The position numbers were made by a program, and so were the translations under genes. This document shows positions 1-53,052 of a stretch of 53,441 nt of DNA, in pieces. The stretch is taken from IMG/VR virus record IMGVR_UViG_3300027872_000008, positions 1 to 53,441 of that record; one strand, given 5' to 3'. The notes under the pieces were generated by a model. That model did no database searches and was not told the origin of the DNA. It was given only the letters and a program-made list of their open reading frames with translations. Source of the stretch: a virus. Taxonomy: Duplodnaviria > Caudoviricetes. Position 1 is the first letter of the stretch. Every line of letters begins with the position of its first letter.

Positions 1-91
1 GCAAGCCGGTGTCCCTCGTTCTGAGGGCACCGAAGATGTCTATGCCAGCCGACCGCTTGGTCAGAAAGTCGCGAAGACCGAACCCGAGCAT
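1..91 (-). CDS. 5' part of a hypothetical virion-region protein (truncated by window edge; same as start of 49465-50118)
   Basis: MLGFGLRDFLTKRSAG... is identical to the copy starting at 50118. Confidence 0.7.
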   Translation of the reverse strand, partial: MLGFGLRDFLTKRSAGIDIFGALRTRDTGL

Positions 92-685
92 TTACGTGAA
101 GACCTCAATGTCCTCCATGTGGAAGCGGAACGCGAGGCTCGCTTCGATGGGTCCACCAGTCGGGTTCTGATAGCCGAAGTAGGCGCTGTCCAGGCGGCCC
201 AAACGCACCGCGTTCTTCAGATCCAACGTGCCTGCGGGAACGGGCCGGAGGAACGACGCGACCTCCTCGCCGCCCGTGATCCCCGTGAGCCCCACCACGC
301 CCGCCTCGTCCCAGACCTCGGCCTCGACAGTCGCCTCTCTGGTCGAGGAGAAGTTCCGGTTCGACGCGACGATAGGTGTGTTGGCTCCGATGACAGCCAG
401 GACCGGGTTCTTCACCAGGAACAGGATCATGCCCGGTGCGCTCTCCGTGGCGGTGAAGCCGTCCGCGACCAGGATCTTCGACTCTGACAGATTCCTGACG
501 TAGAGGACGGGGCCTACATCGGCCGCCTTGACCGTGACCGTTCGGATGGCCTGGGAGGTGGCGAGCGTAAACGCCTCTCCCTGGCGTGAGGCGTCGGCCT
601 CCAGGGACTCCGAGATCGCCTCTGTCCGCAGCCGACCACCGGCTACCCGTGCGCCCTGTTCGGTGAGTGGATCTCTAATGAACAT
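92..685 (-). CDS. Hypothetical virion-region protein
   Basis: ATG at 685 (MFIRDPLTEQ); the frame is conserved in copy B (50119-50712). Confidence 0.8.
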   Translation of the reverse strand: MFIRDPLTEQGARVAGGRLRTEAISESLEADASRQGEAFTLATSQAIRTVTVKAADVGPVLYVRNLSESKILVADGFTATESAPGMILFLVKNPVLAVIGANTPIVASNRNFSSTREATVEAEVWDEAGVVGLTGITGGEEVASFLRPVPAGTLDLKNAVRLGRLDSAYFGYQNPTGGPIEASLAFRFHMEDIEVFT

Positions 686-839
686 CGTTTTCCATCTCCT
701 CGTCGGTTGCGACCTCCCAGTGCTTCTCAATCCTGAGTAGCACCTTCAGAATCTCCTCCAGCAGAGCCCTGGTTTTGTTCGCCTGATCGGCAATTCCTTG
801 CAGTACCTCTTCCGCGTCAGCTCCGGGATCGAAGCTCAC
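675..839 (-). CDS. Small acidic helical protein (54 aa), possible fibre chaperone
   Basis: GTG overlaps the upstream stop. SFDPGADAEEVLQGIADQANKTRALLEEILK...; frame conserved in copy B (50702-50866). Confidence 0.65.
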   Translation of the reverse strand: MSFDPGADAEEVLQGIADQANKTRALLEEILKVLLRIEKHWEVATDEEMENDVH

Positions 840-2146
840 TGGATCCACCACCCTGTGCCGTCACTGACCAGCGTGAACGACAGGTTGTTCCTCCGCAGGA
901 TGGCCTCCTCGAAGCCGTCGATCAGTTGCCCCATCACAGAGGGAGTTAACGTCACGAACGGCTCCATGAAACCAGAGCCGATGATTTTGAAGTGGAGCTG
1001 GTCCGTGAATCCGGCTGCGAAGTGGGCTGCTGCGTCTGGGATGAGGACCTCCACGGAGCCCAGGCTGATGTCCACGTTCAGGTGCCAGTCGGTCTCGACC
1101 AGGGTGTACGGAGTGTCCGCTGCGGTGATGGTGCGGATCCCTCGACGGACCTGGTCCTCCAGGGTCGTGACGCCCTCCACGTTGACCGTAGACTCGAACA
1201 CGGCAGCAGCCTGGAAGGTGGCGAGGTTCTGGAAGATCGCCGCCGCTTCGGCCGTGAAGAGACCCTCGACGTTGAGTGAGGACTCCATCACCACAGCGGC
1301 CTGGAACGTGGCGAGCGCCTGGAAGAGTGCAGCACCCTCGAACGTCGCGAGCCCCTGCACGTTGAGCGTGGACTCCATCACCACCGCCGCCTGGAACGTG
1401 GCCAGGGCCTCGAACACCGCAGCGCCCAGGAAGAACGACAGGCTCTCGGCCGTGAAGGTCCCACCGACCATCAGAGTCTCTATGACCTGGAGGTCTTCGT
1501 TGATGATCGCATCGCGGCCCACGAAGAGGTCCTGGAGGACGTCCAGGTCCCTCGGGAACACGTAGTCCCCCGTGAGCCCAGGGTTGCAGCCCCCACTCGT
1601 CCCGAAGACCCCAGGCAGGATGTTGCCAGCCAGGTTGCAGAGCGAGAACTGATACTGCTGGACGGCCGAGAGTGGGACCTGGCTGTCTAGGATTTGCCCG
1701 ACGATCTGGTTGAAGGAGATGGCACCACCACCAGCGGTTGGAGCCCCCCCGATCTCGGGCCGCCGGTCGATGTAGCTGTTGGCGACGAAGGACCCGTTCC
1801 TGGCGGCGATCTGGGCCATCGGGATGGATTCGAGGTAGGTGAATCCCGTCTGGTTCACGGTCACCTGGCCCGCGTCCGAGCGTTCGATGAAGTTGGTCCC
1901 GCCCTCCACCAGCGTCACGGAACCGTTCGGGATCAGGAGCCACCGATCCCCGGCGTCGATGTAGCCCCCATGGAAGGCGTACTTCAGGTTGAGCGAGGCG
2001 AAGCGGTTCCAGGAGAAGGGCCTGAAGACCATCGCCTCCAGGAGCCGCGTGATGCGGAAGACGCGCTGGGAGGCCAGGTCCTCGGCCGGGGCCTCCCAAC
2101 CGCTGGGGAACCCCTTCTCTGATACCTCTGAGCCGGAGAACGGCAT
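836..2146 (-). CDS. Tail fibre/spike-like protein with ~30-aa beta-repeat shaft
   Basis: Tandem ALATFQAAVVMESTLNVEG-type repeats; C-terminal LIDG...LVSDGTGWWI domain typical of fibre tips. Confidence 0.7.
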   Translation of the reverse strand: MPFSGSEVSEKGFPSGWEAPAEDLASQRVFRITRLLEAMVFRPFSWNRFASLNLKYAFHGGYIDAGDRWLLIPNGSVTLVEGGTNFIERSDAGQVTVNQTGFTYLESIPMAQIAARNGSFVANSYIDRRPEIGGAPTAGGGAISFNQIVGQILDSQVPLSAVQQYQFSLCNLAGNILPGVFGTSGGCNPGLTGDYVFPRDLDVLQDLFVGRDAIINEDLQVIETLMVGGTFTAESLSFFLGAAVFEALATFQAAVVMESTLNVQGLATFEGAALFQALATFQAAVVMESSLNVEGLFTAEAAAIFQNLATFQAAAVFESTVNVEGVTTLEDQVRRGIRTITAADTPYTLVETDWHLNVDISLGSVEVLIPDAAAHFAAGFTDQLHFKIIGSGFMEPFVTLTPSVMGQLIDGFEEAILRRNNLSFTLVSDGTGWWIQ

Positions 2147-2152
2147 GGTTCC

Positions 2153-3010
2153 CTAGTGGTAGAGGCCGAGAAGGACGCCGCTGATGTCACAGAAGTCGAG
2201 CACCGAGCCAGCCGGATCTCGCGTCGAGACACTGAGCTTCAGCCAGTTCTCACCGATGTGTTCGGTGGTGGGGATCTCTACGCTGACCTCCGTCCCGTTC
2301 CCGAGGAACGTCGCGTCTATCGTCGGCTGGTCCAGCTCGTAGAAGAAGGCCAGGCCATCTCCCTGCGGATCTAACGCGGGGAACGGCTCCCCGAGCGGAG
2401 CCCGGTTCCGAGCTGGTCGCACGAACTGGGCTTTGAGTTCACCGAAGTCCCCGGTCTGCTTGACCCGAATCCTGATGGAACTCCACTGCACGATGGGGAC
2501 GAACGCCTCTACTCCGTCCATACCGAAGGAGAGTGACGCGCCTCCAAAGCCCGTGCCCATAGTGTCCGAGACGAGGATGCTGTTGCCCGCGCTCCCCCGT
2601 GCGATGGCGAACACCAACATGGTGATGCCCGAACCGCTAGGGTTGATCTCGGCGGTGACGGTCGGGTGGAGCGTCATCGCCGCCGCGTAATCCGTGCCCG
2701 GCGTCCCTGTCAGGGTGAGCGCGGCTAGGACGTTGTCGTGTGTGAGTTCACGGGTCGCGGCGATCTGGATGTTGCCATCGACGTTGGTGAGGACCGTCTG
2801 CAACGTCCAAGTCTTCTCGTTAGGGCCGCCGTCGTCGATGGTGAACGTCTCGCCGTTGAGCGCGTTCGGATTCACGGAGAGCCCCGTGCTGGCCTGGCGG
2901 GTTGGCGTGTCCCAGAAGTCGAACCCCGTGCCCTGGCGGCCCCTGAAGGGGCTCCGTGCGACTCGCGCATCCGGCGACGGGATAACCAGCCGCGTTGGTT
3001 TCTCAGCCAT
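2153..3010 (-). CDS. Virion decoration-like protein (paralog family MAExPTRL...GENWLK...LLGLxH) with inserted domain
   Basis: Paralogous to 3023-3829, 52183-53040 and 53053-end. Confidence 0.7.
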   Translation of the reverse strand: MAEKPTRLVIPSPDARVARSPFRGRQGTGFDFWDTPTRQASTGLSVNPNALNGETFTIDDGGPNEKTWTLQTVLTNVDGNIQIAATRELTHDNVLAALTLTGTPGTDYAAAMTLHPTVTAEINPSGSGITMLVFAIARGSAGNSILVSDTMGTGFGGASLSFGMDGVEAFVPIVQWSSIRIRVKQTGDFGELKAQFVRPARNRAPLGEPFPALDPQGDGLAFFYELDQPTIDATFLGNGTEVSVEIPTTEHIGENWLKLSVSTRDPAGSVLDFCDISGVLLGLYH

Positions 3011-3022
3011 GATCGCCGCCGC

Positions 3023-3829
3023 CTAGTGGAAGAGTCCGAGGAGTTCGCCGCTGATGTCGAGGAAGCTGATGACCGCATTACTCGCCTCGGAGTCCACGGA
3101 GATCTTCAGCCAGTTCTCGCCTTGGTGTTCGGCAGCGGTGATCTCCAAGCTCTGCTCGACTCCATCCACAAGGGCTGTCGGACCCACCACGGCGGGCTGA
3201 TCGACGGTGTAGATTTCTGCGAGACCAGTAGACGCCACTTTGTCACGGGCGGGTCGAGCGAACTGCAGCGTGAGGCCCCCGTCCGCTCCGTCGAGTCTCA
3301 CCCGAACCCGCATCTGGCCCCATTGGACGATGGGCACGAACTGAACGGCCGCGTCTGGGTCCGCACCACCGGACAGTGTGGCTCCAGTCCAGACTGATCC
3401 AGCGTCCACGATGCCATCCACGGTGGTGATCGCATCGCCAGCGGTGCCGGTGAACTTCGCCGTCACCTCCATCGTGCTGCCTACCTCGTCGGTGGCTGAG
3501 ACGGTCGGATGGATCGTGGTTGCGGCTGCATACAGAATCCCGGCCTGGGCAGGGTCGAGGTTGATGGCAGCGACCAGGGCGTCCAGCGAAGCGTCTCCGT
3601 TGACGCCGATGATGAGGTCCCCGTCACCGACGCCGAGCACGGTGTTCCAGGTGTAGAGCTTGCCGTCGATGGTGACGGTCTCGCCGTTCAGGATGTTGGG
3701 GACGAGGGTGAGGGTGCTAACCGCTCCGGTTCCGCCTACTCCGAAGGGATCGTCCTTGCCTCCGAAGGGGCTCCGCGCCGATCTGGCGTCGGGGGAGGGC
3801 ACCGTTAGCCTGGTCGGTTGTTCAGCCAT
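3023..3829 (-). CDS. Virion decoration-like protein, paralog of 2153-3010
   Basis: Shares the N-terminus, FVPIVQW and EHQGENWLK motifs. Confidence 0.7.
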   Translation of the reverse strand: MAEQPTRLTVPSPDARSARSPFGGKDDPFGVGGTGAVSTLTLVPNILNGETVTIDGKLYTWNTVLGVGDGDLIIGVNGDASLDALVAAINLDPAQAGILYAAATTIHPTVSATDEVGSTMEVTAKFTGTAGDAITTVDGIVDAGSVWTGATLSGGADPDAAVQFVPIVQWGQMRVRVRLDGADGGLTLQFARPARDKVASTGLAEIYTVDQPAVVGPTALVDGVEQSLEITAAEHQGENWLKISVDSEASNAVISFLDISGELLGLFH

Positions 3830-3878
3830 GATGATACGCTCAGTTTTGTGGGTGGGTGGGAGTTAGCGTATGCCGTAC

Positions 3879-4163
3879 TTATAGCCGCTCCCGATCTGGC
3901 GGGCCAGGCATCCAGCCCTCCCCGGTGAGCTGGTCCACCGTCGCGCCCCGTCCCCAGAAGTGGATCCGCATCCTGCAGCGGAGGTCTCCGGGGATCTTGG
4001 CTGCCGCGTTGGCCAGGTGGTTGTTCACACCCCAGGCGGTGATGTCGAGCTTCTTCTGGATCGTGGCCCGGCTGTCCCCCCGGATGAGGAGCGCGGTCAC
4101 GATGTTCTCCATCGGCGTGAACGGCTCCAGGAGGGGGGCCCTACATCTCTGTTCCTTCGGCAT
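3879..4163 (-). CDS. LuxR/GerE-type HTH protein
   Basis: ENIVTALLIRGDSRATIQKKLDITAWGVNNHLANAAAKI matches the LuxR C-terminal HTH pattern. Confidence 0.6.
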   Translation of the reverse strand: MPKEQRCRAPLLEPFTPMENIVTALLIRGDSRATIQKKLDITAWGVNNHLANAAAKIPGDLRCRMRIHFWGRGATVDQLTGEGWMPGPPDRERL

Positions 4164-4539
4164 TGAGCATCCTCAGTGCTTCCTCGGTCGCCTGATCGAC
4201 GCTCAGAATCTGGCCTTCCTCACGCGCCTGGGCCATCAGCCATTCAACCCCGTTGTCGAGGGTCTCCGCAGTGAACTTCGCGTCCTCGGGCGTGGCCCGC
4301 CGCTTCTCCCCCGTCCCGGCGATCCCTTCGATCCGGTCGATGGCCGCCTCTATCGCGTCCTCCGCGTCGGGCTGCTCGAAGACGACAGCCTTCTTCAGCG
4401 GGGTGCCTCCGAAGGTCGTGTAGTTCTGGACGAAGATCCGCATCCGGCGCTCGCCCCACCAGAGCGAGATCGCGAAGAACGCCGCCGCCCACCCGACGAC
4501 GGCGAGCGCCAGGACACCGTTGGCCAGGTTCTCGCTCAC
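4141..4539 (-). CDS. Hypothetical membrane-anchored protein
   Basis: N-terminal TM segment (GVLALAVVGWAAAFFAISLWW); GTGA overlap with the terL stop. Confidence 0.65.
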   Translation of the reverse strand: MSENLANGVLALAVVGWAAAFFAISLWWGERRMRIFVQNYTTFGGTPLKKAVVFEQPDAEDAIEAAIDRIEGIAGTGEKRRATPEDAKFTAETLDNGVEWLMAQAREEGQILSVDQATEEALRMLNAEGTEM

Positions 4540-6065
4540 TGGAGCATCCCGTCCACGAGGAGGTCGTGATCCTCTTGCCAGGTGTTGCCCCTCCTGAGGG
4601 GCCCCGAGGTGTGCCTTCGCTTCTCCATCTCGTGCAGCAGAGTTGCCTTGCCGAAGGCTTTGACCTCCTGCTCTTTCCAGTTGCTCCGGGAGACCCCCGG
4701 CCGGGACGCGAGGGCGTAGCGGGTCTCGTCGTAGTCGTCGTCACCGCCGTCTCCGGTGATCGGATCCGCGTCCACCTTCAGAACGTCCTCGGGGTCGTCA
4801 GGGTTCGTCGTCATCGTCTCCAGCGAGTCGAAGCATCTCCGATTCCCCTCGTTGTCCATCATGTAGAAGTTGGGCTCGCCGTCGAACGGATCGCCGCCGT
4901 CTGCGTCGGGGATGATGCCCTTCCAGGCCACCTGCTCCCGGAAGTTCTTGAGCCCGGCGTAGCGAGCGATGTTGGCGTGGGTCAGGTAGATCTGGGCGTC
5001 CGCGAACCGCTCCTGGGTGGAGGGGGTCTCGTCGTCGTTGCGGGCCTTGTGGTGGGCCCAGCAGTCGTGCCCGGCGACGATGTAGCGGAGGTCTTGGACG
5101 TTGACGTGGTGGTTGATCGCGTCCGCGATCCGCCGGTCCGACATCAGGCGGCCCCGGAAGGTGTTGACCTTGTAGATCACGCCGTCCTCGTCCACCGCGT
5201 AGTGCCCGAAGACCCAGGGGTGGCTGAAGCCCCAGTCGAAGGATCCGAACTGGGTCCAGGTCGGGGGGATCCCGAAGGGCTCCAGGAAGTGGACGTCCTC
5301 GTCCAGCTCGTCCAGGCCCATGCCGAATCCGGCGTCCCAGTCCCCGTAGAGGAGCTGGCGTCGGAGCATATCGGGGAGGCTGAAGAGCTTCGCCATGTAG
5401 ACCGCGTCGTTGGCGTAGACCGGGTTGTCCGTCACGCGAGCTGGGATGAAGCGCCTGGACATCGTCGCCCTGAGGATCTGGCCGTCGAGGCCCGGCATCT
5501 CGTAGTCGTAACGGTAGATGTTCTCCCCACGTTTTCCACACTTGTTGATAAACCGCCGCTTGATCCACGGGTGGCCAGGCTTCCCTGGGTTGGCCGTGCC
5601 GCGCATCATCAGGATCACGTCGGGGTTCGGGCAGCGGTTCTCGGCCATGAGCATGACCCACACCCTCTCGTCCGCGACGTCGCCCACCTCATCGAATCCG
5701 ATGTAGGCCCACTCCTGGCCGTGGTAACGCTGGACCTCGTCCTTGGTCGAGCAGTAGCCGAACTGGAGGACGCCGCCTCCGGGGAAGGTCCAACGCTTGA
5801 GCCCGCCGTTCCAGTGGGGTGCGTTGGCCATCGACGGGAAGGCGAGCTGGCTGCGGTCGATCAGCTCCTGGACCTCGGGGAAGGTCTGCCGGAGGATGAG
5901 CGCCTTGTAGCGCGGGAGGGCCATCTGGGAGAGGGCCGCGAAGAGGATGGCGTCACTCTTCGCGCACCCCTTCGCGCCACCGTAGAGGACCTCTGTTTCG
6001 GTGCTGGCGCAGAACTGCCGTTGGGGCTCGCTGTTCGGAGCCCAGACTACACCCGGCTCATTCAC
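4536..6065 (-). CDS. terL: Terminase large subunit
   Basis: Walker A YGGAKGCAKS, Walker B YIGFDE, coupling motif GTANPG, RNase-H-like FDWG...D...D.YDETRY. Confidence 0.95.
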   Translation of the reverse strand: MNEPGVVWAPNSEPQRQFCASTETEVLYGGAKGCAKSDAILFAALSQMALPRYKALILRQTFPEVQELIDRSQLAFPSMANAPHWNGGLKRWTFPGGGVLQFGYCSTKDEVQRYHGQEWAYIGFDEVGDVADERVWVMLMAENRCPNPDVILMMRGTANPGKPGHPWIKRRFINKCGKRGENIYRYDYEMPGLDGQILRATMSRRFIPARVTDNPVYANDAVYMAKLFSLPDMLRRQLLYGDWDAGFGMGLDELDEDVHFLEPFGIPPTWTQFGSFDWGFSHPWVFGHYAVDEDGVIYKVNTFRGRLMSDRRIADAINHHVNVQDLRYIVAGHDCWAHHKARNDDETPSTQERFADAQIYLTHANIARYAGLKNFREQVAWKGIIPDADGGDPFDGEPNFYMMDNEGNRRCFDSLETMTTNPDDPEDVLKVDADPITGDGGDDDYDETRYALASRPGVSRSNWKEQEVKAFGKATLLHEMEKRRHTSGPLRRGNTWQEDHDLLVDGMLQ

Positions 6066-6352
6066 CGATGGCTGATCGCCTGGTTCGCCCAGAACATCGC
6101 CTCGGCGCAGTGCATGACCGCGTGATCCTTCTGGTCGCCCTCGGGGACGTGGTCCTCAATCGCCATGGCCAGGAGCCGGGCTCGCTCGCGGATCGTCTCT
6201 AGGGAGGCCCGCTGCCGGGTGCCGTTCTTGACCACGACCGGGCTGAAGAACTTCTCTATCGCCTGGATCCGCAGCCGCCTCGAAGCGGCCTGGTGGGGGG
6301 GTGCCTCTTCCTCCTGATCGGACATCGTCTCTTCGATTGCTGTGTCTCTCAT
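6062..6352 (-). CDS. Acb2/Tad1-hairpin-like protein (putative nucleotide-signal sponge)
   Basis: IRERARLLAMAIEDHVPEGDQKDHAVMHCAEAMFWANQAI resembles the helical hairpin (REKSLA.TKLEEA.MWAN.AI-like) of this family. Confidence 0.6.
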   Translation of the reverse strand: MRDTAIEETMSDQEEEAPPHQAASRRLRIQAIEKFFSPVVVKNGTRQRASLETIRERARLLAMAIEDHVPEGDQKDHAVMHCAEAMFWANQAISHR

Positions 6353-7711: not shown

Positions 7712-8092
7712 TTAAGCCCCGGTCACCTCGGATGGATACGCGCCCGCACCACCCACCTTCCTGACGCCACTATCGCTGAAGATCTCGTAGGTCGGGCTCG
7801 TCTCCTTCAGACCCGCCTCCACGATCTCTCTATGCTCGTCCAGAACCCTTCTCATCTGCTGGTTCAGTTGCCGCTGCATCTCGGTCTTCCCGCCGCCACG
7901 GCCGCCCATCCAGTAGACCTTCTCCATCGCCGCCGGGGTGATCTCCATCGTGCCGATGAACCGCTTGTACTTGAGGACCCCGAGACGCTGGTATCGCGCC
8001 CAGGTGACCTCCGGTTTCCACAGCCCGGCCGCGACGACGGCCGCGACGGGCGCGGCCAGAATGGTCCTCAGGAATCCCCTTCGAGTCTTCAC
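7712..8092 (-). CDS. Small protein with twin-arginine-like N-terminus and capsid-/terminase-like peptide fragments
   Basis: GGAG RBS plus GTG; TRRGFL followed by a hydrophobic helix; GTMEIT and GGRGGGKT segments. Confidence 0.55.
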   Translation of the reverse strand: MKTRRGFLRTILAAPVAAVVAAGLWKPEVTWARYQRLGVLKYKRFIGTMEITPAAMEKVYWMGGRGGGKTEMQRQLNQQMRRVLDEHREIVEAGLKETSPTYEIFSDSGVRKVGGAGAYPSEVTGA

Positions 8093-8197
8093 GTCTTTCG
8101 CTCCCAGCTTGCACCCAGGTCGTTCACATCCTAGATCAACGATACGCGAGTTCATCCTGGGACGCCAGGGAAACATCACACCGAAAGGAGGCCCCCC

Positions 8198-8443
8198 GTG
8201 GCCAGTAGTGACACCATGGACACCCAGGTCGGCACTTGGCATAGCGAGAACGTACTCAAGCGCCTGGACCGCTCCCGCAGGTTCCTGTACGGCCAGGGCA
8301 TCATCACCGAGACCGTCAACGAGGCGGTTCGGAAGAGCCTGGAGGAGGCCCGAGACCTGGAGCTGGCGGCCGAGCATGACCACATGGCCGACATCCCCGC
8401 GCACCTGGTCGAGGAGGACGAGCCGGAGCCCGGCGATGAGTGA
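8198..8443 (+). CDS. Hypothetical protein
   Basis: AAAGGAGG RBS; acidic ORF. Confidence 0.65.
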   Translation: MASSDTMDTQVGTWHSENVLKRLDRSRRFLYGQGIITETVNEAVRKSLEEARDLELAAEHDHMADIPAHLVEEDEPEPGDE

Positions 8444-8726
8444 GATCACAACCCGGCTCCAGATGCACCTGAACGGCGGCAGCAACTACAGCCTGCGGGT
8501 GGAGGACATCCTGGTGGACGGAGTCCAGGTCCCCGGCATGAGCATGGGCACAACCACGGACGGCAGCCCCGAGTTCCTCTGCACCGGCAAGGAGCTGGTC
8601 TACCGTGGCCCTGGCAAGTGGGCAGAGGGTGACGAGGAGCGGCTCGACCTGATGGACCCGGAGGTCGATCCCGAGGACATCGACGCCTGGATCTTAGCCC
8701 GAGTCCCGGAGGTGGCCGATGCCTGA
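8436..8726 (+). CDS. Hypothetical protein
   Basis: ATG at 8436 overlaps the upstream ORF end. Confidence 0.6.
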   Translation: MSEITTRLQMHLNGGSNYSLRVEDILVDGVQVPGMSMGTTTDGSPEFLCTGKELVYRGPGKWAEGDEERLDLMDPEVDPEDIDAWILARVPEVADA

Positions 8727-9282
8727 CTCCGGCATCCTGATCCGCGACTGGGACAAGCTCCAGCACTTCAAAGACCGCGACCCGATCTGGATCAAGCTCT
8801 ACCGGGCGCTGCGCCACGACCGCCGCTGGAGGCAGCTCTCCGGCGAGGGCTGCAAGCTCTACATCGACCTGACGCTGCTGGCCGCCGAGGAAGAGCCGTT
8901 CGGCGCGATCCAGCTCCACCCGGCCGACCTGGCCTGGGAAGTGCGCCTGGATCCAGAGAACCTGCGGATCGCGCTCCTGGAGGTCGCCGCTGCAGGCCTA
9001 ATCACCGTGGTCGGGTATCAGGCTGATGTCAAGCTGTTATCAGCCGGGGATCAAGGTGGTGACGCGCCGTTAGCCCTCACGCGCTCGCGAGAGGCAGAGG
9101 GAGAGAGAGAGGTAGAGGTAGAGAAAGAAACTACCTCGGTCACTCGAACTGGCTGGTCTGAAGACGTCGTCCACGTTGACCTCGAAGAGCTGGCCCTCTT
9201 CTGTGATGACTTCCAGATCCCCTACGGCGAGATGAACACGAGCCTGAAGAGTCTCTACGCCACGAAGCTCCTGCCTGTGTAA
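8719..9282 (+). CDS. Protein with phage replication-initiator-like N-terminal domain
   Basis: IRDWDKLQHFKDRDPIWIKLYRALRHD...KLYIDLTLLAAE plus an EREVEVEKE linker. Confidence 0.55.
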   Translation: MPDSGILIRDWDKLQHFKDRDPIWIKLYRALRHDRRWRQLSGEGCKLYIDLTLLAAEEEPFGAIQLHPADLAWEVRLDPENLRIALLEVAAAGLITVVGYQADVKLLSAGDQGGDAPLALTRSREAEGEREVEVEKETTSVTRTGWSEDVVHVDLEELALFCDDFQIPYGEMNTSLKSLYATKLLPV

Positions 9283-9491
9283 TGAGCCGCACGATCCGGC
9301 GTAAGTGCGTCCGAGACTACCAGCACTACTACGTCCGCGAGGATGTTACCTGGGATGACCCAGACCCCGACGACGAGTCCCAGATGAGAGAGATCGCCCT
9401 GGTCTGCTTCCGCTGTGGACACTGCCTCTGGATCGACTCCATCGTCCGACCCTGGATGGGCCTGCCTAGCGACGACGACTGGGGAACGTGA
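9282..9491 (+). CDS. Small Cys-containing hypothetical protein
   Basis: TAATG coupling; CFRCGHC. Confidence 0.5.
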   Translation: MSRTIRRKCVRDYQHYYVREDVTWDDPDPDDESQMREIALVCFRCGHCLWIDSIVRPWMGLPSDDDWGT

Positions 9492-9550
9492 ACCGCCACA
9501 CCGTCCAGACCCACCAGGCCCGGAGAACGAGGATGTCGAGGTCCGTAATC

Positions 9551-9744
9551 TCAGGGAAAAAAATTTTGGGGGTCTGACCTGTCGGAGGGGATACTATGAT
9601 CATGTAGAGCTGCGCGGCCATGCGAACAGAGGTGCCGCACCCGGCGGGGCGGGCGCAGAGTAGGCTGGCCACCCCCCTGCCACGTACCGCCCACCCCACG
9701 CAAGTCCTTATGTATCAACGTGTTAGCCCATGCGTGAGCAGCCA
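9551..9744. other. Non-coding packaging-initiation/genome-end-like region
   Basis: GGGAAAAAAATTTTGGGGG and G/C runs just downstream of terS, between convergent genes. Confidence 0.35.
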
Positions 9745-9772
9745 GGTTAACATAATGTCTATTATACGAAGT
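9745..9772 (-). other. dif: dif-like XerC/XerD recombination site
   Basis: Minus strand ACTTCGTATAA-TAGACA-TTATGTTAACC: 11-6-11 layout with a XerD-type TTATGTTAA arm; AT-rich island in GC-rich DNA. Confidence 0.85.
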
Positions 9773-9810
9773 CGCCTCGCTAACGTGCAGGGGGACATAC
9801 ACTTACAGCG

Positions 9811-10176
9811 TCACCCCTCGCCGCTGGTCAGCAGCCTGGGCCCACCTTCGGGCCCATTCTCAACTAGCCCCCCGTCTATACCTGCCTCACGCGGGGGCCT
9901 GGGCGGCCCTGCCACCTCGACCGCTTCGAGGGCAGGCAGGTGGACGATCCCCAGCACCATGGCCCCCTCCTCGGCATGGATGTGGACCGCTGCCTGGTCA
10001 GCAGCTCCCAGGCCGAAGCGGCCAAGCGCATCTAAAGCACGGATCCGGTCGGCGCTCTTCTCTTCGGGGTCGGCCGCGATGCTCGACAGCGTCTCCAGGC
10101 CGTCGTACAGCCGGGCCCGACACGCGGCCCGTATGACGTTCGGAGCGGGCCCTCCGATGTTCTCGTTTTCAGGCAT
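9811..10176 (-). CDS. Putative terminase small subunit
   Basis: GGAGG RBS; helical LETLSSIAAD...ADRIRALDALGRFG; same strand as and upstream of terL. Confidence 0.5.
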   Translation of the reverse strand: MPENENIGGPAPNVIRAACRARLYDGLETLSSIAADPEEKSADRIRALDALGRFGLGAADQAAVHIHAEEGAMVLGIVHLPALEAVEVAGPPRPPREAGIDGGLVENGPEGGPRLLTSGEG

Positions 10177-10281
10177 CCTACCCTCCGGTGGAATGGCCTG
10201 GACTCTGGCGGTTGCTGGCGCGGTCCGCAAGTGGCAACCCCAGTGTCTACCCCGTTTCTCTTGCGACTTTGAACAAGCCTA

Positions 10282-10310
10282 TTGACCCGCCGCAGTGTCG
10301 TCGCAATAGT
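10282..10310 (+). promoter_or_regulatory. Sigma70-like early promoter P1
   Basis: TTGACC-17 nt-AATAGT. Confidence 0.6.
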
Positions 10311-10367
10311 GGAGGTGTCAGGGGAGACGCTCCCCGGCAGAAGACCTCTCTCAGAAAGGACGGCAAG

Positions 10368-10811
10368 ATGACTCGCTTCGCTTCCCCGGTCACCAGCTTC
10401 GGAGCCGCCGGTCGGCACCTCGGCTCTCGTGACTCACGGCCCATCGGGCACAACACCTCAGTCGAGCGACTGAGCGAGACCCGCATCGCGATCCGCTTCC
10501 ACTCGACCAACGTGATCACCTTCCACATGGACGGCCGGATCACCTTCGACACCGGGGGCTGGTGGAGCGTCACCACCAAGGTGCGCCTCAACAGCCTGAG
10601 CCCCTGCCAGATCTGGAGCGAGGGCGACGGTGACTGGGCGATCCAAGGCCCCACGGGCGACGGGGCCAGGTTCGAGGACGGGATCACCATGGGCGCTGAC
10701 GGGACCTTCCAGAACTGGAAGGAAGCGCGGGCGCTCCTGCGGGCCTCGCGGGCTCGCCGGTTCGCCATCAAGGACGCTGAACTGGCCGCGATGACCGGCG
10801 ACTCAGCGTGA
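10368..10811 (+). CDS. Phage early hypothetical protein
   Basis: AAAGGA RBS; GGWWSVTTKVRLN motif. Confidence 0.75.
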   Translation: MTRFASPVTSFGAAGRHLGSRDSRPIGHNTSVERLSETRIAIRFHSTNVITFHMDGRITFDTGGWWSVTTKVRLNSLSPCQIWSEGDGDWAIQGPTGDGARFEDGITMGADGTFQNWKEARALLRASRARRFAIKDAELAAMTGDSA

Positions 10812-11376: not shown

Positions 11377-11384
11377 ACCGATGA

Positions 11385-11424
11385 CCTGGAGCGGAACGCT
11401 GGCCGGTTCGAGCCCGGCCCCAGG
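11385..11424 (+). ncRNA. T-loop mini-element 2
   Basis: CCTGG-AGCG gaa CGCT-GGCCGG TTCGAGC CCGGCC-CCAGG, a perfect three-way junction. Confidence 0.6.
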
Positions 11425-11446
11425 CTTCACCACCAAGGAGACGCAC

Positions 11447-12307
11447 ATGAGAGACCTGAACGTGCCCACCGAGATCACCGCCGCGATGGACGGCGGGGCC
11501 GCCCTGGCGGTGTCGATCTCCGGCGGCAAGGACTCCCAGGCCATGGCTCTGGCGCTCGTCGCCTGGGCCAAGCGGGAAGGCTACTGGGGCGTCAACGAGA
11601 TCTTCGCGGTCCACGCTGACCTGGGCCAGATGGAGTGGCAAGGCGAGTACGCCACCGAGCCCGTGGTGGTCGCCCAGGCGGCCGACCTGGGGCTGGAGCT
11701 GCACGTCGTCACGAGGACTGACGGCCGCGACCTCCTGGACCGGATCAAGGACCGCCGGGCCACCATGACCGAGAAGGGCCAGGACGGCCCCTTCTGGCCC
11801 AGCTCCTCGACCCGCTACTGCACCAGCGACCTGAAGCGCGACCCGATCAACAAGCTGCTGCGGACCTGGACCCACGTCATCAGCGCGGAGGGGATCCGGG
11901 CCGCCGAGTCCACGGCCAGGGCCAAGAAGCCCTGCTGGGCTCCCCGCAAGCGGATCCTCTCGAAGACCCGCGAGGCCCACACCTGGCACCCGATCCTGGA
12001 CTGGTCCGAGGACGATGTCTGGACCGCCATCGGGGGCCGCGACGGCCACCTGGTCCACCCGGCCTACGGCCTGGGGAACGAACGCCTCTCCTGCGCCATG
12101 TGCGTCTTCGGCTGCGACGGCGACCTGGTCAACGGAGCCCGGAACAACCCAGCCCTCTTCGAGGAGCTGCTCGACCTGGAGCGCGACAGCGGCTGGCGGT
12201 TCACCGTCAAGCGGAGCCTCGAAGAGGTGAAGCTCTGCCTCGACGGCGAAGCGCCCCTGGTCAACGGCCGGATCCAACTGCCGGTCCTCAACTCACAAGG
12301 AGCCTGA
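11447..12307 (+). CDS. PAPS-reductase-family (PP-loop) protein 1
   Basis: SISGGKDS, RYCTSDLK, GIRAAES, PILDW...DVW, HPAY.LG.ERLSCAMC. Confidence 0.9.
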   Translation: MRDLNVPTEITAAMDGGAALAVSISGGKDSQAMALALVAWAKREGYWGVNEIFAVHADLGQMEWQGEYATEPVVVAQAADLGLELHVVTRTDGRDLLDRIKDRRATMTEKGQDGPFWPSSSTRYCTSDLKRDPINKLLRTWTHVISAEGIRAAESTARAKKPCWAPRKRILSKTREAHTWHPILDWSEDDVWTAIGGRDGHLVHPAYGLGNERLSCAMCVFGCDGDLVNGARNNPALFEELLDLERDSGWRFTVKRSLEEVKLCLDGEAPLVNGRIQLPVLNSQGA

Positions 12308-13331: not shown

Positions 13332-13382
13332 CCGGGACCGGCAGCCAGGCGGGTTCGAGGCCCGCCGCCCGGCCTTGCCTCA
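13332..13382 (+). ncRNA. T-loop mini-element 3
   Basis: CCGGG...GGCGGG TTCGAGG CCCGCC-g-CCCGG-ccttgcctca. Confidence 0.55.
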
Positions 13383-13399
13383 GTTCAACGGAGACCACC

Positions 13400-13552
13400 A
13401 TGGACCCGACCTACAGCATCATCCGGTTCAGCATGGACGCGCCCCAGGAGGTGATCAAGGAGGGCCTGACGCTCGAAGAGGCCCAGGAGCACTGCAACCG
13501 GGACGACACGCACGGCCCAGGCTGGTTCGACGGCTACCGGGAGGAAGTGTGA
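13400..13552 (+). CDS. Small phage protein (50 aa)
   Basis: GGAG RBS; GLTLEEAQEHC...WFDGY. Confidence 0.7.
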   Translation: MDPTYSIIRFSMDAPQEVIKEGLTLEEAQEHCNRDDTHGPGWFDGYREEV

Positions 13553-14418
13553 ACTCGACCACCTTCGGACTCCTCGGAGCTGGGGCCCCGTTCAGTGTGG
13601 CCTACGGGATGGGGGTGGACTCCACCGCCATGCTCGTGGGCCTGGCCGAGCGGGGGATCCGGCCCGACGCGATCCTCTTCGCTGACGTTGGCGGGGAGAA
13701 GCCGGAGACCTACGCCTACCAGGCCAAGATGGACGCCTGGCTGCGCTCTGTAGGCTTCCCGGAGATCACAGTGGTCCGCTACCCTGGGCCGAAGAGCGGA
13801 GCCTACGACACGCTCGAAGGGAACTGCATCTCGAACGGGACGCTGCCCTCGCTGGCCTTCGGCTTCAAGAGCTGCTCGCTCAAGTGGAAGGTCGAGCCCC
13901 AGAAGAAGTGGGAGCGGGCCTGGCAGCCTGCCCAGGACGCCTGGGCCAAGGGCCTGCCCATCATCAAGGCCATCGGCTTCGACGCCTCTCCGAAGGACTC
14001 GAAGCGGTGCAGCTACGCGGCCGACAAGGTCGATGACGATCCGAAGTACCACTACTGGTATCCGCTCCGCGACTGGGGCTGGACACGCGAGGAGTGCATG
14101 GCCCAGATCGAAGCGGCCGGGCTCCCGGTGCCGATGAAGAGCGCCTGCTTCTTCTGCCCTGCATCGCAGGTCGAGGAGATCGCCTGGCTGGCCGACAAAC
14201 ACCCGGAGCTGGCCGACCGGATCATCACCATGGAGAACAACGCCAGGCCCAGGCTGAAGAAGATCAAAGGGCTCTGGCGCAACGGGGTGAAGGGCACACG
14301 AGGTGGGATCCCGAAGCCGGGCCGGATGGCCGACTTCATCCACCGCTACCGGGGCACGGCCGAGAGGACCTGGCCGATCCAGCTCCCGGTGATTCAACCG
14401 ACCAAGGAGGCAGCATGA
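13549..14418 (+). CDS. PAPS-reductase-like (PP-loop) protein 2
   Basis: AYGMGVDSTA, FADVGGEKPETY, CSLKWK, YPLRDWGW, KSACFFCP; GTGA overlap start. Confidence 0.85.
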   Translation: MNSTTFGLLGAGAPFSVAYGMGVDSTAMLVGLAERGIRPDAILFADVGGEKPETYAYQAKMDAWLRSVGFPEITVVRYPGPKSGAYDTLEGNCISNGTLPSLAFGFKSCSLKWKVEPQKKWERAWQPAQDAWAKGLPIIKAIGFDASPKDSKRCSYAADKVDDDPKYHYWYPLRDWGWTREECMAQIEAAGLPVPMKSACFFCPASQVEEIAWLADKHPELADRIITMENNARPRLKKIKGLWRNGVKGTRGGIPKPGRMADFIHRYRGTAERTWPIQLPVIQPTKEAA

Positions 14419-15314
14419 CCAGAGCCGTTGACCTCTTCGCTGGCTGGGGTGGGTTCACCCTGGGAGCGGAGCAGGCCGGAGTCGATGTCGTCTGGGCCGC
14501 GAACCACTGGCCCATGGCGGTGGAGGCCCACGCGCTGAACCACCCCGACACGATCCACGCCTGCCAGGATCTGACCCAGGCCGACTGGACCAAGCTCCCC
14601 GACTACGAGCTGCTGCTCGCGAGCCCGGCCTGCCCTGGCCACTCGACGGCGAGCCAGCCGAGACGCCGGGCCTACCACGACGAGTCACGGGCCACCGCCT
14701 GGGCGGTCGTGGACTGCGCCGAGGTGACCTACCCGGAGACCCTGATCGTGGAGAACGTGCCCGCCTTCCAACGCTGGCAGCTCTACCCGATCTGGAAGAG
14801 CGCACTGCGCCAGCTAGGCTACGAACTCGAAGAGCACGTCCTCCGGGCCAGCCACTACGGGGTGCCGCAGCGACGGGATCGGCTCTTCATCCTGGGCTCG
14901 CGGGTGGGGGCTCACATCACCCCCCGGAAGCCCTCGCAGGAGCCCGCCTTCGGGCCCTGCATCGACTGGGACGCCGGGGACTGGCGTCCACGCACCGACG
15001 CGGGCAAGGGCGCTCAGAAGCGAATGGCTGACGGCCACGCCCGGCACGGGGATCGGTTCCTCAGTCAGCACACGACGGGCCACCGAGGCATCAGCCTGGA
15101 CGAGCCCATCAGGACCATCACGGCCCAGGACCACTGGCTCGCGGTGGACGGCGATCTCTACCGCCCGCTCACGATCCGAGAGACGGCTCGCGGGATGGGC
15201 TTCCCCGAGACCTACGCCTGGCCCGAGGCGGCCACGCGGACGGACTCCATCATCGGCCTGGGCAACGCAGTCTGCCCGCCCCTGGTCGCGGACCTAATCA
15301 AGGAGGCAGCATGA
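14415..15314 (+). CDS. DNA (cytosine-5)-methyltransferase
   Basis: DLFAGWGG (I), SPAC (IV), ENV (VI), QRRDR (VIII), LGNAV (X). Confidence 0.92.
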   Translation: MTRAVDLFAGWGGFTLGAEQAGVDVVWAANHWPMAVEAHALNHPDTIHACQDLTQADWTKLPDYELLLASPACPGHSTASQPRRRAYHDESRATAWAVVDCAEVTYPETLIVENVPAFQRWQLYPIWKSALRQLGYELEEHVLRASHYGVPQRRDRLFILGSRVGAHITPRKPSQEPAFGPCIDWDAGDWRPRTDAGKGAQKRMADGHARHGDRFLSQHTTGHRGISLDEPIRTITAQDHWLAVDGDLYRPLTIRETARGMGFPETYAWPEAATRTDSIIGLGNAVCPPLVADLIKEAA

Positions 15315-19290: not shown

Positions 19291-19524
19291 ATGGCTAACA
19301 CGAAAGACGGTGCCAGATTCATTCACGAGGAGAGCGGGATGCGCGAGTTCGTCAGGAAGGGGCTCGTGGACCAGCAGGGCCTGGATGCCGACCTGGTGGA
19401 GACGGCGATGGACCGCTGGAACGACGACGCGGATCCGGTGGGCCCCTTCGAGCACGGGGTCTTCGCCGTGATCACGAGCATCTTCGAGAAGATGGAGGAG
19501 CAGCAGGCCAATGACGACGACTGA
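19291..19524 (+). CDS. Hypothetical protein
   Basis: GGAG RBS. Confidence 0.6.
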   Translation: MANTKDGARFIHEESGMREFVRKGLVDQQGLDADLVETAMDRWNDDADPVGPFEHGVFAVITSIFEKMEEQQANDDD

Positions 19525-19843
19525 GAGAACACGTCCGCACAAGGACATGACCGCCGAGGACCTGGCCGCCTGGAGGACGCAGCAGGCCGGGGACTACGCC
19601 TACGCGAGGAACCAGCGCCGACCCGGATGGACGCAGCGCCGGGCCTCGCACTGGTACGGTGTGAGCGAGCGCCAGTGGCAGCGATATGAGAACGGCGACA
19701 GCCCGATCCCGCTGTCCTTGGTGAAGAGGATGGTCGCCTACGAGACGAGCTTCGATCAGACCGTGGACCGGCTCTTCGACACCACTCCATCGCAGCTCGA
19801 AGAGAACGATGGGATCTTCCCCGAGATGAAGGGCCAGGACTGA
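19511..19843 (+). CDS. XRE/Cro-family HTH regulator
   Basis: GWTQRRASHWYGVSERQWQRYENGDSPIP. Confidence 0.85.
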   Translation: MTTTERTRPHKDMTAEDLAAWRTQQAGDYAYARNQRRPGWTQRRASHWYGVSERQWQRYENGDSPIPLSLVKRMVAYETSFDQTVDRLFDTTPSQLEENDGIFPEMKGQD

Positions 19844-20479: not shown

Positions 20480-20716
20480 ATGAGATGGATCACGACCAGC
20501 GAGGCCGCCGAGTGTACCGGCTTCACCCGTCAGTGGGTGGAGAAGCGGATCGCGGACGGCACCTTCAAGGCCGAGAAGAAAGGCACCCGAGTCCACGTCG
20601 ATGGGAACTCGGTGCAGGACTGGATGGTGGCCGAGATGGACCGGATCCAGGACCGCTGGAAATTCTACTATCACCACCTTCCCAACGGATACCATGGCAA
20701 ACCGAAAACAGACTAA
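20480..20716 (+). CDS. Excisionase-like HTH DNA-binding protein
   Basis: WITTSEAAECTGFTRQWVEKRIADGTFKAEKKG...V. Confidence 0.8.
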   Translation: MRWITTSEAAECTGFTRQWVEKRIADGTFKAEKKGTRVHVDGNSVQDWMVAEMDRIQDRWKFYYHHLPNGYHGKPKTD

Positions 20717-21773
20717 GAAGCGCACCCCCGAGGAGATCCGAGCCGAGTTCCTGGCCCGACGACGCAGTGGCCTGGGGGGCTCCGACGTGGGCGCGATCAT
20801 GGGGGTCGATCAGTACAAGGACGGGCTCGACATCTACCTCGACAAGGTGGACCCAGGCCCTGACTTCGACAACCCGGCGATGGAGCGCGGCCGATACCTG
20901 GAGCCCGTCGTCTCGAAGCTCTACGAGGTGACGTCTGGCCGCCGCCTGCAGGTGGGCAAGTTCCGACGCGACCAGAAGAACAAGTTCCTGATCGGGAGCC
21001 CCGACCGCATCATTAAGCCGACCGGCCGGAAGCCCTACGCGGCCGACGTCAGCAGCCCTGGGGTGCTGGAGATCAAGACGGCCAACCGCTTCGTCCTGAA
21101 GAAGATGAAGGAGCAGGGGCTGCCGAAGAACTACATCCTCCAGCTCCAGCATTACATGGGACTGAGTGGCACCACCTGGGGGGCCTTCGCGGTCCTCTGC
21201 CCTGACCCCTGGGAGTTCCTCACGTTCACCGTCGAGTTCGACCGGGAGCTGTACGACCGGGTGCGCGAGGTGCTCGAAGCCTTCTGGCGGGACCACGTCG
21301 AGGCCGAGGTGCCGCCGATCCCCAAGCCCATCGACTACGGGGACTCGAAGGAGGTCACGGCCGACACGGCCGTCACGATCTTCGACCCCGGCAGTAACGG
21401 CCTGGTCCAGTGGGAGAAGAGCGTGGACCTCTTCCGGGAGGCCAACGCGATGCTGGCTCTGGGCAAGGAGGCGAAGGAGTTCGCGAGGACCCAGATGATA
21501 GAGCAGATGGAGCTGGGCCACGGGATCTACGAGGGAGGTGGGGCCAGGGTCCACTACCAGGCCCAGGGTGGCCGGAAGACCTTCATGCAGCGGGAGCTGC
21601 GAGCGATGCAGCCGCTGGATCCCATCGCCATGGCCTCGCTCCTGGAGCAGGCCGGGCTGGACCTCGACACCATAGAGACACTGTTCGAGAACGCACGACT
21701 CAACCTGGACGACTTCCAGAAGATCGGGCAGCCGTTCGAGACCGTCAGAATGTACGACTCAAGGGAGGAGTAG
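20694..21773 (+). CDS. YqaJ-like viral recombination exonuclease
   Basis: RRSGLGGSDVGAIMG, GRYLE, GSPDR, LEIKT, YILQLQHYM. Confidence 0.92.
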   Translation: MANRKQTKKRTPEEIRAEFLARRRSGLGGSDVGAIMGVDQYKDGLDIYLDKVDPGPDFDNPAMERGRYLEPVVSKLYEVTSGRRLQVGKFRRDQKNKFLIGSPDRIIKPTGRKPYAADVSSPGVLEIKTANRFVLKKMKEQGLPKNYILQLQHYMGLSGTTWGAFAVLCPDPWEFLTFTVEFDRELYDRVREVLEAFWRDHVEAEVPPIPKPIDYGDSKEVTADTAVTIFDPGSNGLVQWEKSVDLFREANAMLALGKEAKEFARTQMIEQMELGHGIYEGGGARVHYQAQGGRKTFMQRELRAMQPLDPIAMASLLEQAGLDLDTIETLFENARLNLDDFQKIGQPFETVRMYDSREE

Positions 21774-21775
21774 AG

Positions 21776-22597
21776 ATGGCTGAGAAGCAGACCAAGACCC
21801 TGGTCCAGGTGATCGACACCCAGGCCCACAAGATCCGGGAGATCCTACCCGAGGGACAGAACAGCGACAAGGACGCGGCCCGAGTGATCCGGCTCGCCCG
21901 GCTCGCCATCGTCCGCAACCCGAAGCTCATGGACTGCACCCCGATCAGCGTGGTCGAGTCGATCATGGTGGCCAGCCAGCTAGGGCTGGAGATCAACAGC
22001 CCCATCGGTGGCGCACACCTCGTGCCGTTCGGGAAGAAGTGCCAGATGATCCCCGACTACCGGGGCCTGATCCGGCTGGCCCTGAAGAACGGGGACTGCG
22101 GGAAACTCGTTGCTCGCGAGGTCTACGAGGGCGATATGTTCCACGTCATCCAGGGCACCACCGAGATGATCGAACACGTCCCGCTCCTCGGTGACGAGCC
22201 CCGAGGCGACGACAACATCAGCGGCTTCTACGCCGTGGCCACTCTGAGCAACGGGCTCACCGTCCACGAGTACGCTCCCCGAGGAGACGTGGACAAGATC
22301 CGGGCTCGCTCGAAGGCGGGCAGCTCCGGCCCCTGGAAGACGGACTACGCAGCCATGGGCAAGAAGACCATGATCAAGCGAGTCCTGAAGTGGCTGGACC
22401 TCTCCCCTGACCTCGCCATGGCCATTGAGTACGACAACCGGGGGGAGACAGGCTACTCCACCTCCACGAGCGACAGGGACACCGAGGAGACCGTTGAGGA
22501 GGACATGGCAGAGCAGGCCCGGCAGGCCCAGAAGGATCTGTCCGAGAACCTGGAGCAGGCCCGGCGTGAGGAGCTGATCGGGGAGGCGCAAGAGTGA
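21776..22597 (+). CDS. recT: RecT-family single-strand annealing protein
   Basis: NPKLMDCTPISV...LGLE...LVPF...DYRGLI...PWKTDYAAMGKKT. Confidence 0.92.
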   Translation: MAEKQTKTLVQVIDTQAHKIREILPEGQNSDKDAARVIRLARLAIVRNPKLMDCTPISVVESIMVASQLGLEINSPIGGAHLVPFGKKCQMIPDYRGLIRLALKNGDCGKLVAREVYEGDMFHVIQGTTEMIEHVPLLGDEPRGDDNISGFYAVATLSNGLTVHEYAPRGDVDKIRARSKAGSSGPWKTDYAAMGKKTMIKRVLKWLDLSPDLAMAIEYDNRGETGYSTSTSDRDTEETVEEDMAEQARQAQKDLSENLEQARREELIGEAQE

Positions 22598-50712: not shown

Positions 50713-50866
50713 CGTCTTCAACCTCCTCGTCGGTTGCGATTTCCCAGTGCTTCTCAATCCTGAGTAGCGCCTTCAGAATCTCCTCCAGCAGAGCCCTGGT
50801 TTTGTTCTCCTGTTCGGCAATCGCCTCTTCTACGTCTTCGGCATCGGCTCCGGGATCGAAGCTCAC
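50702..50866 (-). CDS. Small acidic protein (copy B of 675-839)
   Basis: Frame conserved. Confidence 0.65.
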   Translation of the reverse strand: MSFDPGADAEDVEEAIAEQENKTRALLEEILKALLRIEKHWEIATDEEVEDDVH

Positions 50867-52176: not shown

Positions 52177-52182
52177 CGGTTC

Positions 52183-53040: not shown

Positions 53041-53052
53041 GGTCGCCGCCCC

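Follow-up and report, generated by a model that had tools for sequence, protein, structure and literature searches.

That plasmids exploit the Xer recombination of their hosts is well documented, as it is for small phages (filamentous, micro-, tailless and satellite), and large tailed phages are assumed to bring an integrase or a partition system of their own. On plasmids, multimer-resolution sites often lie near the replicon, and sites of the cer and psi type carry about 180 bp of accessory sequence on their XerC side, beside the XerC arm, which binds PepA together with ArgR or ArcA. Among phages, a precedent for integration comes from the gokushoviruses, whose full 28-bp dif motifs serve XerC/XerD-dependent reversible integration according to the available text of the study that describes them (PMC7062461). 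A December 2025 survey, in the accessible part of its text, treats IMEX as a trait of non-tailed phages and describes attP sites flanked by rstR and xafT (PMC12715192). Our full-text literature search, with subscription journals and supplementary files outside its scope, found no tailed phage with a dif mimic; in the portions of the sources that were available, the Xer-exploiting phages were filamentous, micro-, double-jelly-roll/tailless or satellite phages only. This agrees with a preliminary description of the locus studied here, which had called such a site little described for tailed phages.

Here we analyse a dif-type site in a marine tailed phage record of 53,441 bases (the whole stretch of DNA, which is also the whole IMG/VR virus record, is called the window below). 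The observation itself was confirmed, and its interpretation as a site for host XerCD is plausible.

Results

A single dif-type site between converging genes

The preliminary description had placed a dif-like 11-6-11 site at 9745-9772, and its letters were confirmed: the plus strand reads GGTTAACATAATGTCTATTATACGAAGT there, and the reverse complement, ACTTCGTATAA TAGACA TTATGTTAACC, consists of two 11-bp arms around a 6-bp spacer, the inner arm ends being near-inverted (..TATAA against TTATG..). With up to three mismatches allowed, both the exact 28-mer and the arm pattern TTCGTATAA-N6-TTATGTTAA gave one match in the whole window, and neither matched in any of 100 dinucleotide-preserving shuffles (0/100 each). 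A chance match can be dismissed: the 28-bp site is genuine and occurs once in the window. It lies in non-coding DNA of about 9492-9810, as judged by codon-position GC, between two converging genes (Table 1). No Rfam family or tRNA was found near the site, and no stable RNA fold was found for its 126-nt region, whose folds were no better than those of shuffles (z +1.1 and -0.5).

Table 1. Coordinates of the site, its flanks and selected genes in the window
Feature	Position	Strand	Basis or remark
Xer (dif-type) site, 11-6-11, 28 bp	9745..9772	-	single match, kept in relatives, host-dif-like arms
XerC arm ACTTCGTATAA	9762-9772	-	
Spacer TAGACA	9756-9761	-	
XerD arm TTATGTTAACC	9745-9755	-	
Conserved non-coding block, XerC side (GTAAGTGTATGTCCCCC..GTTAGC.. 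on the minus strand), candidate accessory sequence	9773..9810	-	anchored comparison
Non-coding block, XerD side, with recurring CTAAC and CTTAC/CTTGC boxes	9695..9744	-	boxes about 20 and 41 nt from the site
121-aa gene, ATG at 10176, GGAGGG Shine-Dalgarno (codons 10176-9814, stop 9811-9813)	9811..10176	-	17 homologues
Divergent promoter region, 121-aa gene / plus-strand early operon	10177..10370	.	TTGACC-17-AATAGT at 10282-10310
187-aa gene converging on the site, like the N-terminal part of a phage replication protein	8719..9282	+	phrog_26426, E 5.9e-8
69-aa gene, last before the site on the XerD side	9282..9491	+	codon-position GC
Small divergent genes, possible regulatory cassette, limits uncertain	7712..8726	.	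frame-specific GC3
Large terminase	4536-6065		
RecE/RecT-like genes	20601-22597		
DnaD-like initiator and DnaB-like helicase	22683-24361		
XRE-type HTH	19511-19843		PF13560, 27 bits, at cut-off

The 38 bp between the XerC arm and the end of the 121-aa gene form a block with columns conserved at 70-90% or more in an anchored comparison of 20 family members. On the XerD side the recurring boxes showed partial conservation only; in two loci, L264 and L278, the site is bracketed by inverted repeats of 10-11 bp made up of these boxes. The divergent promoter region is well conserved with respect to the closest relative, G001. In 8 of the 18 high-GC metagenome contigs described below, and also in L263/L264, homologues of the 187-aa protein are found on the corresponding side of the site, and those of the 69-aa protein in relatives are 40-87% identical. 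The genes of the possible regulatory cassette, at about 7712-8134 on the minus strand and 8198-8443 and 8442-8726 on the plus strand, have homologues in relatives and gave no family matches.

A probably complete genome in which no recombinase was found

The record is classed as linear, with a GC content of 63-69% across the window and a CheckV completeness of 58%. Its positions 1-3166 recur at 50028-53193 with 86% identity, an offset of about 50,027 bp, and in G001 (55,078 bp, from another sample) positions 1-4224 and 50807-55078 form a repeat at a different map position. Both, in our reading, are genomes of about 50 kb that are circular or circularly permuted. The identity of the end repeats reaches no more than 83-86%, which together with the differing map positions suggests that co-occurring strains were stitched by the assembler; as it would have run on into such a strain in both cases, both genomes are probably complete. 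IMG/VR lists direct terminal repeats for a third relative, G407 (49,797 bp). The claim of a complete genome thus stands as probable, given the wrap-round at about 50.0 kb, that of G001 and the terminal repeats of one relative, and is at odds with the CheckV estimate. Searches of GenBank phages gave no DNA match to the window and no protein match for the 121-aa family.

A six-frame search of the whole record with HMMs for tyrosine and serine recombinases, transposases, ParB and ParM gave nothing (PF00589, PF00239, PF07508, PF00665 for the rve / DDE transposase class, PF02195 and PF06406), and the ParA-type models PF13614 and PF01656 met only the P-loop of the DnaB-like helicase, below the cut-off. 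When most of these families were searched in the same way in three complete-looking genomes (G000, G001 and G407), no recombinase of their own was found, as is the case for IMEX, and neither were ParA, ParB or ParM. The absence of a tyrosine or serine recombinase and of ParA/B, first remarked from the open reading frames, therefore holds, and the scan for a missed integrase returned none. The genome is circular or permuted and has its own replication genes; no partition genes were found, and no plasmid state has been observed. As to the regulators that had been claimed, an XRE-type HTH is present, and no Xis-like protein was found among the window ORFs scanned (32 in Pfam and 41 in PHROGs, most structural genes falling outside the scan); the proposed RecET-like system is represented by a RecE/RecT pair. 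Neither a repressor nor any other gene for lysogeny could be assigned confidently.

Some further genes deserve mention in their own right. Two PAPS-reductase-like genes and a DNA methyltransferase gene in the early operon (11381-12307, 13375-14418 and 14094-15314, plus strand) may form a DNA-modification module. Just upstream of the large terminase, a 96-aa protein (6062-6352, minus strand) matches the Acb2/Tad1 hairpin domain PF24729 with 30 bits against a cut-off of 27 and is a candidate sponge against cyclic-nucleotide defence signals. A 436/437-aa tail-fibre-like gene holds 90-bp tandem repeats (window 1173-1432 and 51200-51459).

Likeness to the dif of Gemmatimonadota

A scan of 185,579 species genomes with the two arm cores returned at least 120 loci; among the matches listed, most were multi-copy sites in Acinetobacter records, and those of high GC came mainly as one site each in MAGs of Gemmatimonadota. 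When 401 Gemmatimonadota genomes were sampled, TTCGTATAA-N6-TTATGTTAA with at most one mismatch was present in 147, once in 145 of them and twice in two, and a reversed control pattern matched in none; the 147 include two unpublished genomes, on which nothing rests. The one complete chromosome examined, G002, has its dif-type site at 1.258 Mb, and its GC skew, sampled every 150 kb, turns from plus to minus between 1.21 and 1.35 Mb. In all four genomes with both on one contig (G002, G108, G181 and G298), the distance from the site to a XerD-like gene is 21-27 kb. Because there is nearly always a single site per genome, a switch of the GC skew at the site in the chromosome examined and a XerD-like gene nearby, the motif is the dif of the phylum. 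A pair of XerC- and XerD-like paralogues is encoded by all five candidate host genomes, the second paralogue being XerC-like; the XerD model TIGR02225 scored over its cut-off in three of the five, and the XerC model, with 277-326 bits, stayed slightly below its cut-off. A predicted Gemmatimonas dif may already be contained in the dif lists of Kono et al. 2011, which are named in the available text of PMC7062461.

The commonest form of the host dif is ACTTCGTATAA, followed by a spacer such as GATATG, TAGATG or TATGTA (37, 19 and 17 in a hand tally) and then by TTATGTTAAGT. The phage XerC arm agrees with the commonest host arm at 11/11 positions and is found exactly in 28 of the 36 host rows listed. 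Its XerD arm agrees at 9/11, with CC at its end where hosts have GT, and the resulting end ..AACC is phage-only, being absent from all 36 of these rows. The phage spacer TAGACA also occurs in the dif of G108 and G298. The arms of the site hence match the dif of the probable source of XerC and XerD. In host loci (L286-L316), the XerD arm is followed at a distance of about 15 nt by a conserved motif, ATGTGGACAA or ATGTGGAGAA. One MAG has two contigs (L319 and L320; G134:C171 and C70) that both terminate in a shared dif site, and their 30-bp flanks agree fully on either side. The assembly graph may branch at dif here, as it would if an element were present there in a fraction of the population.

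Other pointers to the host come from relatives of the large terminase in Gemmatimonadota MAGs, which are 65, 46 and 44% identical (9/401 genomes at E up to 0.001), and from a homologue of the 121-aa protein, 73% identical, which NCBI lists with a Gemmatimonadetes MAG. The GC content of the window, 63-69%, was counted as a further link to this host. The preliminary description had expected that comparison with candidate host dif sequences would also predict the host, and the site does point to Gemmatimonadota. Since the two protein-based pointers depend on MAG binning, and the assignment otherwise on the site itself, we consider this phylum the probable host.

Conservation of the site and of the neighbouring gene

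G001 carries the identical 28-mer, though its neighbouring 187-aa protein is only 54% identical. A search of viral contigs with the 121-aa protein, in which the site was not used, gave four distinct relatives, and all four have a dif-type site, located 13-45 bp after the 121-aa stop with the XerC arm nearest the gene. XerC arm, spacer and XerD arm read ACTTCGTATAA, TAGACA and TTATGTTAACC in G001 (L263/L354), GGTTCGTATAA, TGTACA and TTATGTTAACC in L264/L355, CCTTCGTATAA, GATACA and TTATGTTAACC in L170/L356, and GGTGCGTATAA, TATGTA and TTATGTTAACC in L357. The XerD arm is therefore invariant in the five sites (the window and four relatives) and the inner XerC arm is also fixed across relatives; what varies is the spacer and the outer XerC arm. 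Lack of conservation in related phages, which would have told against the preliminary reading, was not what we found: the site is kept in relatives.

Scanning metagenome contigs for the pattern yielded 20 hits, of which 18 are high-GC, and in 16 of these 18 the 121-aa gene lies upstream with the same polarity (tblastn); one of the other two has only the tail of the gene, at the contig edge, and the last, L278, has neither gene nor tail. Among seven phage spacer variants, three are exact matches to sampled host spacers (TAGACA, TATACA and TATGTA), and most of the others agree with a common host type in the first four bases but not in the final two. For most family members, the spacer equals common host spacers on the XerC side and departs from them on the XerD side (TAGA-CA against TAGA-TG). 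The module is not universal in the wider group: contig G181:C31, with a 65% identical large terminase, has no site, no 121-aa gene and no integrase.

Two observations concern further sites. L278, a metagenome contig of 1173 bp with no 121-aa gene and no similarity to the proteins of the window, carries the phage-type site GCTTCGTATAA GATACA TTATGTTAACC between the two halves of a 10-bp inverted repeat. Separately, 12 IMG/VR loci on 4- to 37-kb contigs of 58-61% GC (L150, L152, L155, L162, L177, L190, L191, L204, L218, L224, L244 and L246) share a dif-type site, (A/G)GTTCGTATAA TACCCA TTATGTTAAAT, and may represent a separate family of Xer-exploiting elements.

The 121-aa protein

The 121-aa family has a conserved core of 75 residues with 29 invariant columns (17 sequences) and is represented by at least 146 clusters in public metagenomes. 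The protein had no match in Pfam, PHROG, NCBIfam or, by sequence search, the PDB, and its AlphaFold model was poor (two helices, pLDDT 52), too poor for a fold search. A search of the 401 Gemmatimonadota genomes with the family profile found five distant hits only and no close homologue. The distant homologues (hhalign probability 99.4%) have an extra N-terminus rich in glycine and arginine, and their matches to small-terminase PHROGs were weak, in 3/9 tested, with E 4e-4 to 4e-3 (phrog_10899 and phrog_19969). The nearest named ESM Atlas clusters, Terminase_2 and DUF5681 (scores 0.90-0.92), are leads only. Three of the five distant homologues on chromosomes sit in small islands, 0.5-3 kb from a tyrosine integrase. 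The three islands (L329 in G133:C1, L331 in G192:C46 and L333 in G312:C28), one of which has an AAA_25 protein, may be phage satellites. Such integrase-linked homologues would fit a satellite-borne terminase subunit and a recombination accessory factor equally well.

In the window, a distance of 3.7 kb, which includes opposite-strand genes, separates the 121-aa gene from the large terminase. Upstream of the large terminase no other small-terminase candidate was found. A 212-aa protein encoded there was set aside, its consensus appearing by eye to be that of a transmembrane or membrane-anchored coiled-coil protein, as was the 96-aa protein, which is Acb2/Tad1-like. The 121-aa product is here called small-terminase-like; it may be a helical protein of that kind or else a recombination accessory factor.

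Search for integrated copies

Joins between the site and host DNA, which the preliminary description had suggested looking for, were not seen in metagenome contigs, in the contigs of four public runs or beside 35 host dif loci. None of the 20 metagenome contigs has a phage-host junction, and among the 18 high-GC ones, every contig of sufficient length has the site in phage context to its left and right, L278 alone being unassigned. In each of the four public runs the site was spanned in phage context, with no junction among the Logan contigs, which drop rare forms; the sole loose end belongs to a co-occurring relative. No phage genes were found beside the 35 host dif loci, with flanks of 1.5-10 kb on each side, and an attR-type hybrid (the phage left block with a host-type XerD arm) matched 0 viral contigs, against 3 for a phage-type control pattern. 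These searches are too shallow to exclude lysogens or to count against integration.

Discussion

That the phage borrows host XerCD, as had been proposed from the sequence alone, is well supported indirectly, because it carries what appears to be a copy of the host dif with fixed arms and a variable spacer, no recombinase of its own was found, and the probable hosts encode XerC/D-like proteins. The two outcomes proposed along with it, integration and dimer resolution, are both putative. We take the site to be a probable target of host XerC and XerD and tentatively favour, as its use, reversible integration at the host dif; monomer upkeep of an episome and cyclisation, taken jointly, form a quite possible alternative. 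Integration would begin with circularisation of the DNA of a phage that has no recombinase. Host XerC would then bind the arm next to the 121-aa gene and XerD the other arm, and recombination by the pair would join the phage site to the dif located at the replication terminus of the chromosome, leaving the 50-kb genome inserted between two dif-type sites, as with IMEX. The differences in the spacer and in the XerD arm (CC for GT) would favour a XerC-first, FtsK-independent reaction and would damp excision, and assembly or steering of the complex may be aided by the conserved boxes in the flanks and by the neighbouring 121-aa protein. XerCD binding, integration and any role of the flanks or of the 121-aa protein are inferred.

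Beside the gokushovirus precedent, we count the tracking of host spacer types by phage spacers in favour of integration at dif. Against it we count the lack of a confidently assigned lysogeny gene, the expectation that excision should come easily to a prophage flanked by two nearly perfect dif sites, dif-flanked cassettes being lost through native XerCD, and the combination of an invariant XerD arm with a variable outer XerC arm, which is more like plasmid-type Xer sites than the gokushovirus pattern. That combination would suit an account in which the phage persists as an episome and XerCD resolves dimers of the circular phage made by RecE/RecT, much as happens at cer, psi or the chromosomal dif, so that the site never meets the host dif. 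Such upkeep would also be in keeping with the presence of the RecE/RecT-like genes, with the replication-protein-like gene adjoining the site, with a conserved block on the very side where cer and psi carry their accessory sequences, and with the fact that every copy was seen in phage context, unintegrated. Yet the failure to find ParA, ParB or ParM in the three genomes is unusual for a low-copy plasmid prophage of 50 kb and makes a stable low-copy episome less likely, pure self-recombination needs no spacers that track host types (three of seven of them exactly), and concatemers are useful, not harmful, for headful packaging. On balance we regard episome upkeep as possible but rather unlikely.

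The site might instead serve cyclisation next to pac, provided that the 121-aa protein is the small terminase and that packaging begins close by. The first headful would then have the site in both of its terminally redundant ends, and host XerCD would close the injected DNA, much as cyclisation is the proposed role of Cre-lox in phage P1, here with a host enzyme instead. The weak small-terminase signals for the family, the lack of another candidate upstream of the large terminase, assemblies that wrap round as for permuted genomes and a gene-site polarity fixed in all family members agree with this. We nevertheless find it improbable: the terminase assignment is weak, with the low pLDDT and no Pfam or PDB match, three of the five distant chromosomal homologues neighbour tyrosine integrases in small islands, the gene is separated from the large terminase by 3.7 kb that include opposite-strand genes, and RecE/RecT could cyclise the DNA anyway. 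An explanation without Xer would take the site as an AT-rich palindrome, acting as the operator of a phage regulator or as a bidirectional terminator, with a likeness to dif due to convergence or to a captured relic. Its position between converging genes, flanked by short repeated boxes, would suit such a role, but the RNA folds of the region are no better than those of shuffles, and an 11-6-11 layout, arms identical to those of host dif and a pattern of fixed arms and variable spacer, in phages whose proteins are 50-60% identical, are hard to explain in this way; we hold it to be highly improbable.

Integration at the host dif, our preferred reading, could be extended to a whole family. Marine tailed Gemmatimonadota phages of about 50 kb would have given up their integrase for XerCD-dependent lysogeny at dif, the 121-aa protein would be a XafT-like Xer accessory or activation factor, and the site, being next to the packaging gene, would also allow XerCD to cyclise incoming terminally redundant DNA. 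The conserved module would then consist of the dif mimic, the flanking boxes and the 121-aa small-terminase-like protein. In this full form the proposal seems unlikely to us; as for the comparison with XafT, the 121-aa protein has no Pfam match and nothing ties it to XafT.

A conserved dif mimic in an integrase-less family of 50-kb tailed phages would extend the Xer strategy to the dominant class of phages. Lifestyle predictors that rely on integrases would call such phages virulent, though they may not be. A dif mimic also offers host prediction from sequence only for uncultured phages of a poorly studied phylum, and the compact module of site, flanks and 121-aa protein is directly testable in vitro.

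Comparison with known systems

Plasmid sites such as ColE1 cer, pSC101 psi and Acinetobacter pdif are likewise XerC/XerD core sites on extrachromosomal replicons. Like cer and psi, the phage site has a conserved block on its XerC side, here of about 35 bp; an accessory region of the PepA/ArgR/ArcA type was not recognised, and the carrier is a tailed phage. The multi-copy sites of Acinetobacter, which make up most of the matches listed, have the same arm cores as the phage site; pdif come as pairs of inverse sites that bracket a cargo gene, whereas the phage has one site at up to three mismatches and no pdif module.

An attP with spacer homology on the XerC side only is classed as VGJ-type, and with respect to its spacer the site described here would resemble that type among the Vibrio IMEX. 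These elements (filamentous or satellite of CTX, VGJ and TLC type, and double-jelly-roll of dif type) are likewise without a recombinase of their own in the available texts (PMC12715192, PMC6744903, PMC9226527), and their dif-like attP lies between the small regulatory and accessory genes rstR and xafT in the accessible part of PMC12715192, a layout similar to that found here. As these sources portray them, they are small, non-tailed and documented as integrated arrays, unlike the present phage, for which no integrated form is known.

The gokushoviruses, for example EC6098 (Kirchberger and Ochman 2020, PMC7062461), offer the nearest parallel for the site as such, as far as the available text goes: they too have a full 28-bp dif mimic in non-coding DNA and no integrase, and their motif likewise differs from host dif mainly in the spacer and the XerD arm. 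They are 4.5-kb ssDNA microviruses of Escherichia that were found integrated, as given in the same text, whereas the phage here is a 50-kb tailed dsDNA phage, probably of Gemmatimonadota, seen only unintegrated, whose XerD arm is invariant and whose neighbouring gene is conserved. With the Gemmatimonadota dif the phage site has in common the whole of the commonest host XerC arm, 9/11 positions of the XerD arm and, in two sampled genomes, the spacer. The host dif sits at the skew switch and is followed by its own conserved motif, whereas the phage site keeps conserved flanks of its own and the ..AACC end of its XerD arm.
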